NCBI RefSeq assembly: GCF_030384885.1
Contig: NZ_CP128613.1
Strand: one strand, 5' to 3'
Length of the DNA: 64,000 nt
Origin: Escherichia coli
GTDB lineage: Bacteria > Pseudomonadota > Gammaproteobacteria > Enterobacterales > Enterobacteriaceae
Below are positions 1,493 to 59,765 of the stretch, piece by piece. Position 1 is the first letter of the stretch. Each line of letters starts with the position of its first letter. The notes beneath the pieces were generated by a model. It was not told the DNA's origin. It saw nothing but the letters and a program-made list of their open reading frames with translations, and made no database searches. Both the position numbers and the translations under genes were made by a program.

Positions 1493-1792
1493 ATGGCGCT
1501 TACAAAAGCTGAAATGTCAGAATATCTGTTTGATAAGCTTGGGCTTAGCAAGCGGGATGCCAAAGAACTGGTTGAACTGTTTTTCGAAGAGATCCGTCGA
1601 GCTCTGGAAAACGGCGAACAGGTGAAACTCTCTGGTTTTGGTAACTTCGATCTGCGTGATAAGAATCAACGCCCGGGACGTAACCCGAAAACGGGCGAGG
1701 ATATTCCCATTACAGCACGGCGCGTGGTGACCTTCAGACCCGGGCAGAAGTTAAAAAGCCGGGTCGAAAACGCTTCGCCCAAAGACGAGTAA
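1493..1792 (+). CDS. ihfA: Integration host factor alpha subunit
   Basis: 99-aa [76 protein letters not shown]..., canonical IHF-alpha/HU fold sequence. Confidence 0.97.
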
Positions 1793-1804
1793 TCTGATCT
1801 AACT

Positions 1805-1834
1805 AAAAAGGCCGCTCTGCGGCCTTTTTTCTTT
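1805..1834 (+). terminator. Rho-independent terminator after ihfA (GGCCGC-TCT-GCGGCC stem plus T-run)
   Basis: aaaaaggccgctctgcggccttttttctttt directly after ihfA stop. Confidence 0.8.
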
Positions 1835-1892
1835 TCACTGTCGAAGAGTCACCGTAAAATCAACGCCATGACACTTCAGCAGAACGGATACC

Positions 1893-26426: not shown

Positions 26427-26563
26427 CGTGTAATGGCTGCATGAAATAAACAATAAAATATAAATAACATTATCAGCCTGCTGACGGCTTGAAGAGAGTC
26501 ACAGTATCTTGTGCAACATTATTGGAAAGAGTGAGGGGCGAGGTAGCGAAGCGGAAAAATGTT

Positions 26564-26669
26564 AAAAAAAAGCCCATCGTGGGAGATGGGCAAAGACTAC
26601 ACACAGCAATTCGTTGTTTCACTCAGGGGATTTCCATGCTTATAAATCAATATGTTGATTTATAACCGT
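26564..26669 (-). ncRNA. rprA: RprA small regulatory RNA (RpoS translational activator)
   Basis: minus-strand sequence ACGGTTATAAATCAACATATTGATTTATAAGCATGGAAATCCCCTGAGTGAAACAACGAATTGCTGTGTGTAGTCTTTGCCCATCTCCCACGATGGGCTTTTTTTT matches RprA as I remember it, with terminal hairpin and U-tract; located in ydiL-ydiK intergenic region. Confidence 0.9.
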
Positions 26670-31817: not shown

Positions 31818-31916
31818 CGTTGTCACCAGAAAAGTGTGACGCATATTGCTTTTGGTCATTATCTGCACAGTAAACGGTGGTATACTGTGCAGGTCTTGTC
31901 TAAAAGCGAGGATGCT

Positions 31917-32105
31917 ATGTCTACTCAACTTGATCCCACCCAGCTGGCCATTGAATTTTTACGCCGTGACCAGAGCAATCTTTCACCTGCCCAATATCTC
32001 AAACGTCTGAAACAATTAGAACTTGAATTTGCTGACCTGCTTACTCTCTCTTCTGCTGAATTAAAAGAAGAAATCTACTTTGCCTGGCGTTTGGGCGTGC
32101 ATTGA
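31917..32105 (+). CDS. ydiH: Small uncharacterised protein YdiH
   Basis: 62-aa frame from internal ATG (MSTQLDPTQLAIEFLRRDQSNL...) with GAGGA SD; track ORF extends 27 codons upstream. Confidence 0.78.
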   Translation: MSTQLDPTQLAIEFLRRDQSNLSPAQYLKRLKQLELEFADLLTLSSAELKEEIYFAWRLGVH

Positions 32106-32259
32106 TCCTGACGTAATGCCGCGAGTTCGCCAAATCGGCCTGGATTAATCTTCGTCCAGGTTCGAGGGCCTTCTTAATACTGCTTATCTACCCGCCTGAT
32201 AACGTTCAAAAATAATACAGATCGCAGTTTGTGCTAAAACAGCGGCTTAGCTTTATGAG

Positions 32260-32360
32260 ACTATTCTTATCGCCCCTTCAAGAGCTAAGCCACTGTGAGT
32301 GCCGGAGATAAGCGCCGGATGGGGTAGAAACCCTTAAGCCTGTGATGCACAGACTTAAGG
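32260..32360 (+). ncRNA. rydB: Candidate RydB-like small RNA locus (boundaries approximate)
   Basis: ydiH-sufA intergenic region; 5' hairpin (gccgg-agataagc-gccgg) and terminator-like hairpin aaacccttaag-cctgtgatgcacaga-cttaagggttt followed by tcttatttct; RydB is known to map between ydiH and sufA, exact sequence not recalled. Confidence 0.45.
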
Positions 32361-32593
32361 GTTTTCTTATTTCTGAACGCTGCAATTTTTTACCTATCTC
32401 TTAAATAGTCATTTTCAATACAACTTTTTCTTTTTCATCACAGCCTTAATGCTCCTTAGATAATAATCATTATCTAACAATGAGATACCTAATTCTTAGC
32501 GTGCCTGTTAACCCACACATCAGGGTCTATGCTTATTAAAAGCAGGCAAAAAGCATGTTTTACGGTAAAGCCCCTGCGTTTGCTGGGTTGAAC

Positions 32594-32608
32594 TGATAAT
32601 CATTATCA
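32594..32608 (+). promoter_or_regulatory. Fur box in sufA promoter
   Basis: TGATAATCATTATCA, near-perfect Fur consensus core, about 45-60 nt upstream of sufA ATG. Confidence 0.75.
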
Positions 32609-32653
32609 CTAACATGCTGTTATACGCTGAAAGCGATGAAGTGAGGTAAATCG

Positions 32654-33022
32654 ATGGACATGCATTCAGGAACCTTTAATCCACAGGATTTCGCCTGGCA
32701 GGGCTTAACGCTGACACCTGCTGCCGCGGTCCACATCCGTGAGCTGGTGGCAAAGCAGCCGGGTATGGTAGGCGTGCGCTTAGGCGTGAAGCAAACGGGC
32801 TGCGCGGGCTTTGGCTATGTGCTCGACAGTGTTAGCGAGCCAGACAAAGACGATCTGCTGTTTGAACACGACGGCGCGAAGCTGTTTGTCCCGCTGCAAG
32901 CGATGCCGTTTATTGATGGCACGGAAGTCGATTTCGTTCGTGAAGGACTTAATCAGATATTCAAATTTCACAACCCTAAAGCCCAGAATGAATGTGGCTG
33001 TGGCGAAAGCTTTGGGGTATAG
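32654..33022 (+). CDS. sufA: Fe-S cluster A-type carrier
   Basis: 122-aa ORF with C-terminal CGCGESF motif. Confidence 0.96.
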
Positions 33023-50049: not shown

Positions 50050-50355
50050 TCAGGCGAGTTTTGCCTGATTGATTTGACTCAGTGGCTCATTGACATCGAA
50101 AACTTTGGCGACAACTTCCTCAACGCCGAGATTTTTCAGTCGGGCAGTATGTTTTTCCAGATAGGCAAGGGCGCTTTTTTCATCAGTGAAAAGGTAGATC
50201 CCACCGGCTTCGTGGTTCTTTTCACTTTCTGTCCATACCTTCCACAGAAAACCAGGTTCCTGATTAATCGACTCAGCAAGCGGTTTAAGCTGCTCAGCCA
50301 TTGCGTCGCCAAATGGGCCATTAAAAGCAAAATGAAGTTGTAACAAAGTTGCCAT
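50050..50355 (-). CDS. ydhR: Small Dabb/antibiotic-biosynthesis-monooxygenase-like protein
   Basis: 101-aa ORF; terminator hairpin downstream (aagggcg-gttag-cgccctt). Confidence 0.85.
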
Positions 50356-50462
50356 AGCGATTCTCCTTCTGATAACGCATACGAAGACAGTGTAAATCTT
50401 TTAACGTATTGGATACAGAGAAGAAACAGAGGGAAAAAGGAGAAGACCAGATTAAGAAAATC

Positions 50463-50539
50463 TGGTGCGTCCGAGTGGACTCGAACCACCGACCCCCACC
50501 ATGTCAAGGTGGTGCTCTAACCAACTGAGCTACGGACGC
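50463..50539 (-). tRNA. valW: tRNA-Val (anticodon GAC)
   Basis: minus strand GCGTCCGTAGCTCAGTTGGTTAGAGCACCACCTTGACATGGTGGGGGTCGGTGGTTCGAGTCCACTCGGACGCACCA: 77 nt, cloverleaf-compatible, encoded CCA; copy assignment valV vs valW inferred from gene order. Confidence 0.95.
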
Positions 50540-50543
50540 AGGA

Positions 50544-50620
50544 TGGTGCGTTCAATTGGACTCGAACCAACGACCCCCACCATGTCAAGGTGGTGCTCTA
50601 ACCAACTGAGCTATGAACGC
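50544..50620 (-). tRNA. valV: tRNA-Val (anticodon GAC)
   Basis: minus strand GCGTTCATAGCTCAGTTGGTTAGAGCACCACCTTGACATGGTGGGGGTCGTTGGTTCGAGTCCAATTGAACGCACCA: 77 nt, differs from its neighbour in acceptor and T stems; 4-nt spacer. Confidence 0.95.
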
Positions 50621-59212: not shown

Positions 59213-59253
59213 TCCATTTCACTCCAGACCCTAACTTCAGCTCCTGCAAAATC

Positions 59254-59274
59254 GCAAGGTAAACGTTTGCCTTT
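59254..59274 (-). promoter_or_regulatory. PUR-box-like operator in purR leader
   Basis: minus strand AAGGCAAACGTTTACCTTGC, about 45-60 nt upstream of purR ATG. Confidence 0.6.
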
Positions 59275-59510
59275 ACACACCTTACGCACAACAAAAGTGT
59301 TGCGGTACGCCGGAAAAACGACACGGAGCGTCAGGAAGGGGTCAATGGCCAGTACGCAAATAGTGTAAGCGTGGAATTTTGGCCGATCTTGACGAAAAGG
59401 GGAAGTGGTAAAAACACTTATCATTATAAATGACGGGAGATTTTTTCATCACAGTGTGTAAAAATGCGTAATATCACTTTTTGTGTGGTAATAAAAAAGG
59501 AGAAAACTTG

Positions 59511-59600
59511 ATGAGCACCGACCTTAAATTTTCACTGGTAACAACGATTATCGTCCTCGGTTTGATCGTAGCCGTGGGTTTGACTGCCGCGCTGCACTGA
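59511..59600 (+). CDS. ynhF: 29-aa single-TM small membrane protein
   Basis: ATG preceded by AGGAG SD (aaaaaaggagaaaacttg ATG); encodes MSTDLKFSLVTTIIVLGLIVAVGLTAALH; below the size cut-off of the supplied ORF track. Confidence 0.75.
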   Translation: MSTDLKFSLVTTIIVLGLIVAVGLTAALH

Positions 59601-59765
59601 TTTCCTCTCGAGGGAGCGCGTTCTCCCTCGCATCTCCTTCCTGTTTGTTAGCAAAATGGCAAAAGTGTTTTCTCTTTTTGTTATTTTCATTTTTTTGTGA
59701 TTGCTGTCATGCTTTCGCCACTTTAATGAATATCGCGTAATGACGCGAAGAGGTGGAGATAAGGC

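Follow-up and report, generated by a model that had tools for sequence, protein, structure and literature searches.

The spacer between ydiH and sufA in the Escherichia coli chromosome raises the question of what is encoded there, where it begins and ends, and whether it belongs to either of the genes that flank it. The stretch of DNA analysed here, called the window, is a 64,000-nucleotide (nt) piece of an E. coli genome (NCBI RefSeq assembly GCF_030384885.1, contig NZ_CP128613.1) oriented opposite to K-12; at this locus it shows 99.9% identity to strain 2013C-4282 and 95-99% identity to most other E. coli. ydiH (31917-32105, plus strand) and sufA (32654-33022, plus strand) are separated by 548 nt, the length that a preliminary description of the window, made from its letters alone, had given. 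That description had placed in the spacer a candidate for the small RNA (sRNA) RydB. We regard it as practically certain that the flagged element is rydB, a known enterobacterial small-RNA gene. As a finding of a genome scan it is not new: the sRNA had been catalogued before and was here correctly found again. The explanation that best accounts for the observations below, and one that we hold with high confidence, is that rydB is its own transcription unit, encoding a processed RNA with a conserved core. Relatives of this unit occupy the interval between the antiterminator gene Q and the lysis genes in lambdoid prophages, a link that is apparently unreported.

Identity and ends of the RNA

A covariance-model scan with Rfam, of the kind proposed in the preliminary description, clearly matched the rydB family (RF00118) at 32272-32332 on the plus strand. 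The match covers the full model (positions 1-61 of 61) at 83.0 bits (E = 3.5e-18), against a gathering score of 50 bits. In K-12 the curated noncoding RNA gene rydB (b4430, 1764713-1764780, minus strand) occupies the same place and orientation, between sufA and ydiH with all three on the minus strand; the window copy is likewise on the same strand as ydiH and sufA and lies 167 nt downstream of ydiH. The two copies share locus, strand and flanks, and nothing essential differs between them. Sixty of the 61 mature bases are identical to K-12, the sole difference being T32296, where K-12 has A, and two differences fall within the 68-nt annotated interval. rydB is single-copy in 5421 of 5426 complete E. 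coli genomes. The features of the locus, placed with reference to the transcription start site (TSS) where appropriate, are the following.

32272-32332, plus strand: mature RydB RNA, 61 nt (Rfam match, Salmonella TSS, K-12 Term-seq)
32260-32327, plus strand: equivalent of the K-12 GenBank annotation of rydB (b4430, 68 nt), by alignment; offset from the mapped ends
32256-32264, plus strand: putative extended -10 element TGaGACTAT (TG, one base, hexamer GACTAT), from invariance in 17 homologues and the Salmonella TSS
32224-32238, plus strand: conserved upstream block GCAGTTTGTGCTAAA, about -48 to -34, from invariant positions in 17 sequences
32272-32324, plus strand: near-invariant 53-nt core, closed by GCCCC (32272-32276) and GGGGU (32321-32325), from the alignment of 17 sequences
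32302-32318, plus strand: internal hairpin CCGGAG-AUAAG-CGCCGG (P3 of the Rfam consensus structure)
32328-32364, plus strand: 17-bp hairpin, predicted precursor terminator (inverted repeat, folding, homologues)
32365-32374, plus strand: U-rich tract TCTTATTTCT, following the hairpin

Both ends of RydB come from published mapping, the 3' end in K-12 and the 5' end in Salmonella, and were transferred to the window by alignment. The strings of the Salmonella differential RNA sequencing (dRNA-seq) table were read as running from -50 to +1, a reading calibrated on the row for RybB, which ends at the first G of that RNA. The table gives a primary TSS for RydB with the sequence ATCGCCATTTGTGCTAAAAAGGCGCGCTCTCTTTATGAGATTATTCTTATG, ending ...GATTATTCTTATG, in which +1 is the G of GCCCC. 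Since the strings run from -50 to +1, the Salmonella TSS corresponds to G32272 of the window. For the 3' end, Term-seq of K-12 (Adams et al. 2021) lists one position, 1764708 on the minus strand, for each of the three growth conditions (2.17, 4.14 and 2.79 million counts); no further 3' end is listed in that table between 1764600 and 1764899. The Term-seq strings cover -50 to +10, as checked on the lpp terminator, and 1764708(-) falls on window position 32332 both by coordinate mapping through the alignment and by direct comparison of the strings. Judged from these alignments, the mature ends of RydB are very likely 32272 and 32332. The boundaries of 32260-32360 in the preliminary description, which had been offered as approximate, give way to these. 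The Rfam interval coincides exactly with both mapped ends, and the K-12 GenBank coordinates conflict with the published mapping at either end, starting 12 nt before the equivalent of the TSS and stopping 5 nt short of the Term-seq 3' end. These discrepancies matter for annotation, as does the omission of rydB from the RefSeq record (Prokaryotic Genome Annotation Pipeline) of the nearest strain.

Compared with other minus-strand RNAs of the Term-seq table, RydB is at about the level of CsrB (1.2-3.9 million), above DsrA (0.78 million) and below RNase P RNA (12-24 million). In this table (Adams et al. 2021, supplementary file 1) no minus-strand value is below about 23,000, whereas the plus strand has values as low as about 700; the strands appear to be scaled differently, with counts comparable within one strand only. 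A comparison of RydB by count with the plus-strand tmRNA, 6S and 4.5S RNAs was discarded as invalid for this reason.

Directly upstream of the core, T32256, G32257, A32258, G32259, A32260, A32263 and T32264 are invariant in 17 of 17 homologues, that of Rahnella included. The Salmonella TSS puts GATTAT at -12 to -7 and TG at -15/-14, and on the strength of the conserved block and this start site we read the element as an extended -10 promoter. A simple sigma-70 scan called no promoter upstream of rydB, which fits a promoter lacking a good -35. Two other -10 candidates were rejected: TATGAG (32254-32259) loses its essential A in Rahnella, and both it and TATTCT (32262-32267) fit the Salmonella TSS less well than TGnGAnnAT does. 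Farther upstream, G32224, C32225, G32233, A32236 and A32237 are invariant in 17 sequences from four genomic contexts, and this block, as GCAA..TTGTTAAA, is present in most metagenomic and viral copies. The block at 32224-32238 may be a regulator site or a weak -35 region.

Three short upstream blocks (window 32190-32240) are shared by nearly all of the copies on chromosomes, on megaplasmids and in prophages (loci L081-L172): AATAGT or AATAAT at about -58, GCAA or GCAG at about -48, and TTGTTAAA or TTGTGCTAAA at about -40. Going by their recurrence, they may constitute a candidate regulator binding site. A 14-nt inverted repeat, 32239-32252 and 32283-32296 (13 of 14 positions complementary), has one arm in the promoter spacer and the other in nt 12-25 of RydB. 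Its participation in a larger RNA structure was considered and rejected, as the left arm is hypervariable and pairing is poor in K-12 and in other species. The repeat is probably a lineage-specific coincidence.

The downstream hairpin, the core and the function of RydB

The preliminary description had reported two adjacent hairpins, and both were located: CCGGAG..CGCCGG at 32302-32318, and a hairpin with 17-nt arms at 32328-32364, whose outer strings aaacccttaag (32328-32338) and cttaagggttt (32354-32364) are followed by tcttatttct (32365-32374). By inverted-repeat search the arms of the second are 32328-32344 and 32348-32364, 94% complementary around a 3-nt loop. This hairpin folds at -22.0 kcal/mol (z-score (z) = -4.9 against shuffles), and the 104 nt of 32272-32375 fold at -37.1 kcal/mol (z = -3.0), an energy that none of 200 shuffles reached. 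A strong hairpin lies 3' of the core in 14 of 14 ydiH-linked sequences, with z from -2.7 to -6.9, and the structure is kept in all 17 homologues while the sequence is replaced, the stems of Citrobacter NCU1/Awk4 and Pseudenterobacter being unrelated in sequence. In Pantoea, in Rahnella and in most of the metagenomic copies the stem is short and GC-rich and leads into a T-run, the form of a canonical intrinsic terminator; Klebsiella has GC-rich hairpins with no clear U-tract. After the hairpin, most homologues have a U-rich run, which is weak in Citrobacter NCU1/Awk4. Structure that is kept while sequence is replaced is what is expected of an intrinsic terminator. In published annotation, rydB of Salmonella is given a length of 105 nt, spanning the terminator, and RepRanger lists a Rho-independent terminator for rydB.

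The mature 3' end at 32332 lies five bases into the 5' arm of this hairpin and 8 nt past the closing helix of the core. As the abundant RNA ends inside the hairpin, the terminator would have to be removed from the mature RNA. The earlier view of the second hairpin as an intrinsic terminator is upheld with a refinement: the hairpin evolves like one, but it is absent from the mature RNA, which ends within its 5' arm. Termination at the U-tract, followed by nuclease trimming to 32332, seems to us the rather probable course. Transcription would start from the extended -10 promoter (32256-32264) at about G32272, and the first 53 nt would form the near-invariant core, closed by a 5-bp helix. Polymerase would then meet the strong hairpin and U-tract (32328-32374) and terminate, and nucleases would remove the hairpin to leave the 61-nt RNA ending at 32332, as Rfam models it.

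Maturation by removal of a downstream terminator is known for 4.5S, 6S, tmRNA and RNase P RNA. RydB resembles these RNAs in its compact conserved core, its high abundance and a 3' end upstream of a removed terminator. Unlike them, it is dispensable, as judged from an insertion described below, is restricted to Enterobacterales and is not known to have a protein partner, and its abundance is read from one strand of one Term-seq data set. RydB is also like canonical Hfq-dependent sRNAs such as RprA in being intergenic and independently promoted, with a hairpin and U-tract downstream; however, the Rfam model of RprA keeps the terminator and U-tail, whereas mature RydB lacks both and associates weakly with Hfq. 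A terminator-free mature form sets RydB apart from sRNAs of the Hfq type in its biogenesis.

The hairpin might instead serve RNA processing or stability, as an RNase III site would, and RydB might be the stable 5' fragment of a longer transcript, perhaps one that extends towards suf. The sole mapped 3' end does lie inside the stem, with none at the U-tract; the stem is long (17 bp) with an AU-rich middle part; and rydB and sufA are on the same strand. However, other lineages carry short GC-rich stems with U-runs, which are a hallmark of terminators and poor substrates for RNase III. Read-through just upstream of a prophage holin gene, where relatives of rydB are found (see below), would be expected to kill lysogens. 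In Salmonella diarizonae it is a converging transporter gene, not suf, that follows rydB, and the published regulatory sites of suf are farther downstream. We consider a processing signal unlikely and favor termination followed by trimming.

Conservation is concentrated in the core. Among 17 aligned sequences, 40 of its 53 positions are invariant and 47 reach 90% conservation or more; invariant positions number 13 in the 82 nt upstream and none in the 3' hairpin region. The closing helix shows compensatory changes in Leclercia (GCTCC/GGAGC) and Pseudenterobacter (ATCCC/GGGAT), and its terminal pair varies among G-U, G-C and A-U. Two of its pairs are compensated, and 97.8% of cells pair, versus 32-48% in slid controls. 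In this alignment covariation supports the closing helix only. The predicted fold of the 61-nt RNA is no more stable than those of shuffled sequences (z = -0.08), which argues that helix stability is not the cause of the invariance of the core; the pattern of conservation points to sequence-specific recognition by some partner. A small open reading frame (ORF) through the core was ruled out, with no start codon downstream of the TSS and 1-2-nt indels between species in the loop and before the core.

RydB is described in the literature as a regulator of rpoS, a description that goes back to the original multicopy overexpression experiment. A classical Hfq-dependent antisense sRNA, with repression of rpoS by pairing to its leader as its main job, would be in keeping with that result and with the hairpin and U-tract downstream of the core. 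The mature 3' end, however, is upstream of the hairpin, and the Hfq-binding 3' module is missing. Enrichment of RydB by coimmunoprecipitation with Hfq in Salmonella was only 2.5-fold, and the RNA has been classed as Hfq-independent and has no (ARN)x motif; a mature RNA lacking both terminator and U-tail fits this weak association. Complementarity of the single-stranded segments of RydB to the K-12 rpoS leader is at background, with 127, 176 and 63 of 300 random window segments doing as well. A duplex score computed for full-length RydB (13/300 background) was discounted, since it ignores the RNA's own structure. Moreover, a 2024 study refers to RydB as an sRNA without any known targets. We judge it improbable that RydB is mainly an rpoS antisense RNA. 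The mature RNA most probably works in trans, its invariant sequence engaging a partner that the Enterobacterales have in common, and we give Hfq-independent action on such a partner an even chance. Two conditions are reported to lower RydB: ppGpp (guanosine tetraphosphate) represses it 8.8-fold in Salmonella, and in E. coli treated with azidothymidine (AZT) it is the most strongly repressed sRNA, at 20-fold, with a value of 69 in the SspA column of the table. The strong repression of rydB after DNA damage is reported as SspA-linked. No target has been confirmed since 2001, and the near-invariant core, together with the position of the prophage relatives between Q and the lysis genes, provides a testable lead to function.

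Copies of rydB elsewhere and in lambdoid prophages

We anchored 78 species-level loci on the YdiH protein, chosen independently of rydB, with 1.5-kb flanks around ydiH. rydB lies downstream of ydiH in 12 of them, from Escherichia, Salmonella, three Citrobacter, Pseudenterobacter and Leclercia, and scores 70-83 bits with Rfam; eight control loci, that of Intestinirhabdus among them, stayed without a rydB match at a cutoff as loose as E = 1. Genes on the opposite strand start 55-70 nt after ydiH in most other genera, and flanks of 1.5 kb would not reveal rydB located elsewhere. In Salmonella, rydB stays beside ydiH where sufA has been displaced. Intestinirhabdus alba (locus L019, 1686-2259) has ydiH and sufA adjacent, with a 569-nt spacer in which a cutoff of E = 1 still gives no rydB match; on the minus strand of this locus, 1686-1806 falls just short of the threshold for AaHKsRNA22 (39.6 versus 39.8 bits).

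Among plasmid records, BLAST recovered the core with 91-95% identity from megaplasmids of about 0.5 Mb in Pantoea and Rahnella, and also from Klebsiella chromosomes mislabelled as plasmids. The copies from all three genera pass the Rfam threshold and have no ydiH or suf nearby.

L081 3020-3080, L082 3003-3063 and L083 3018-3078: rydB outside the ydiH context (Pantoea/Rahnella megaplasmids, Klebsiella), by Rfam

In Klebsiella, rydB is 100 nt downstream of patD, a context that recurs in at least 9 metagenome loci. In three families of Enterobacterales, and among unrelated genes, the core hardly varies. The promoter block, the core and the hairpin 3' of it occur together in ydiH-linked, patD-linked, megaplasmid and prophage settings, and a unit that travels in this way argues that rydB is its own transcription unit. 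In E. coli strain ANT, a seawater isolate, the insertion sequence IS5 lies inside rydB, between ydiH and sufA (L173, 2452-3546), indicating that rydB is dispensable in a viable strain. A supposed second, prophage-borne copy in E. coli, suggested by a "second place" in the BLAST counts, proved to be one locus split by IS5.

These distributions bear on whether the element belongs to a neighbor. RydB could be a by-product of ydiH, its 3' untranslated region or terminator cut from the ydiH mRNA, as its position 167 nt downstream on the same strand and its constancy beside ydiH in Salmonella might suggest. This idea is largely refuted by the primary Salmonella TSS at the first base of the core, the conserved extended -10 directly upstream of it, the terminator-like site that ydiH itself possesses at 32149-32168, the presence of the unit without ydiH in Klebsiella, Pantoea, Rahnella and prophages, and the many ydiH-bearing species, the majority, that have no rydB downstream of ydiH. 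Equally far-fetched is a cis-acting part of the suf control region in place of an RNA gene: the element does lie upstream of sufA in Escherichia and several other genera, but an abundant discrete RNA is documented, the unit also turns up where suf genes are distant, in Intestinirhabdus ydiH and sufA adjoin with no such element between them, and IS5 interrupts it in a natural isolate. The preliminary description had envisaged that rydB might fail for want of an Rfam hit and a discrete transcript, or turn out to be only the ydiH terminator. The Rfam match, the K-12 Term-seq end and the Salmonella primary TSS speak against the former, and the separate site after ydiH and the recurrence of the unit far from ydiH against the latter.

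Metagenomes that were not pre-selected as viral were scanned with the core variant of Pantoea and Rahnella, CCGGGTGGG; the 45 loci obtained fall into at least 12 groups by flanking sequence. When the neighboring ORFs were clustered, one group stood out by a gene for a GH24 lysozyme, encoded on the same strand about 290 nt downstream. Matches to PHROGs identified Q-like antiterminators upstream, namely phrog_943 (1.5e-81), phrog_127 (lambda-Q type, 4e-84) and phrog_79 (5e-23), and a holin, an endolysin (7e-59) and an Rz-like spanin (6e-42) downstream; RusA is found upstream of Q. Seventeen of the 45 metagenome loci lie in such Q-to-lysis late regions. A scan of IMG/VR found the core in 43 viral contigs. 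In 40 of these, holin/endolysin genes follow on the same strand at a distance of at most 1.4 kb; of the remaining three, two are cut off downstream and one (L154) shows no lysis match in its 1.8 kb of downstream sequence. Twenty-one of the 43 have a Q gene of one of the three families upstream. The Q-to-lysis interval of lambdoid prophages regularly harbors a member of the RydB family.

L085-L172 (for example L110, 10150-11050, minus strand): prophage RydB-family cores between Q and holin/endolysin/Rz, with the CCGGGTGGGG variant in all

All viral copies carry the G variant of the core and the chromosomes of Escherichia, Salmonella and Klebsiella the A variant; the terminator of Escherichia and Salmonella also differs from that of the viral copies. 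The Q-to-holin interval of L110 has a lambda-like promoter (TTGACT-17-CACAAT) at the end of Q and four tandem intrinsic terminators ahead of the holin gene. The rydB unit of L110 retains a canonical promoter block and a terminator of its own and is the final element ahead of holin. Upstream of rydB, at about 10750-10563 on the minus strand of L110, are further small units, each of which combines a promoter-like TATAAT with an intrinsic terminator. The rydB promoter block is found with phrog_943, phrog_127 and phrog_79; about ten contigs have other sequences upstream. The occurrence of one block with three Q families speaks against its being the Q-responsive late promoter itself; by its arrangement, prophage rydB looks like a self-contained inserted sRNA gene (a "moron") rather than a Q-responsive leader.

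The closest analogues come from the lambdoid late region, where tRNA, stx and sRNA morons sit between Q and S and where lambda 6S RNA and StxS are transcripts from P_R' that end at t_R'. The prophage relatives of RydB resemble lambda 6S and StxS as short, strongly promoted RNAs with a strong terminator just before the lysis genes, and StxS has been linked to rpoS, as RydB has been. They are unlike lambda 6S and StxS in that the rydB promoter block accompanies three Q families and that L110 has a separate lambda-like promoter at the end of Q. The sequence of lambda 6S is not known to resemble RydB.

In the literature library that was searched, no paper links RydB to prophage late regions. There are no phage genes around the window copy, whose neighbors are ydiJ-menI-ydiH and sufABCD. 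Chromosomal rydB is probably related by descent to a phage-borne sRNA gene. More tentatively, rydB of Escherichia and Salmonella could be a domesticated copy, or else the donor, of a lambdoid pre-lysis sRNA gene whose invariant 53-nt core binds a conserved host partner in place of Hfq-mediated antisense pairing, and which matters for the decision between lysogeny and lysis or for the physiology of the lysogen. We hold this to be possible, somewhat short of probable. If true, it would explain the conservation of the core, its movement among loci and megaplasmids, the strong terminator and the shutdown of RydB after DNA damage.

A number of observations count against the picture of rydB as an independent unit with a processed RNA, a conserved core and phage-borne relatives. 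Both ends of the RNA in this strain are borrowed from K-12 and Salmonella, and an extra base, C32271, precedes the G in E. coli, whose TSS could then be 32271 or 32272. The two inner helices of the Rfam structure are invariant in 17 homologues, giving no covariation either way; the interior pairing predicted by RNAalifold differs from that of Rfam; and the fold of the 61-nt RNA, as noted, does not stand out from shuffles. A simple terminator scan did not flag the hairpin at 32328-32364, a miss probably due to the single C.A mismatch in its stem, and no 3' end of a precursor is seen at the U-tract in the K-12 Term-seq data. The only reported effect of RydB, as cited in a later paper, is lower rpoS expression on overexpression, and its single-stranded segments have no better-than-background complementarity to the K-12 rpoS leader. 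Finally, the core is absent from 50,697 deposited phage genomes.

Other features of the window

On either side of rydB are several sites that concern its neighbors. A promoter-like site of ydiH, TTGTCA-16-CATATT, lies at 31820-31847 and is also listed in a published genomic SELEX (systematic evolution of ligands by exponential enrichment) study of RpoD. The terminator-like hairpin of ydiH at 32149-32168 is about 45-65 nt past the stop codon and well apart from rydB. Toward sufA, a palindrome, TTAGATAAT/ATTATCTAA (32456-32477; region 32437-32477), overlaps ATCACA-16-GATAAT, which the same SELEX study assigns to sufA. Just upstream of sufA, 32595-32613 on the minus strand matches the Fur box with 3 mismatches, where 0.01 such matches are expected by chance. 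Other Rfam matches above threshold in the window are these.

26562-26669, minus strand: RprA
59213-59603 and 1734-1892, plus strand: STnc550 and STnc540
50466-50539 and 50547-50620, minus strand: two tRNAs

A match to the HPnc0260 "antisense RNA" (region 50339-50620) overlaps one of the tRNAs on the opposite strand and probably merely reflects the tRNA sequence.

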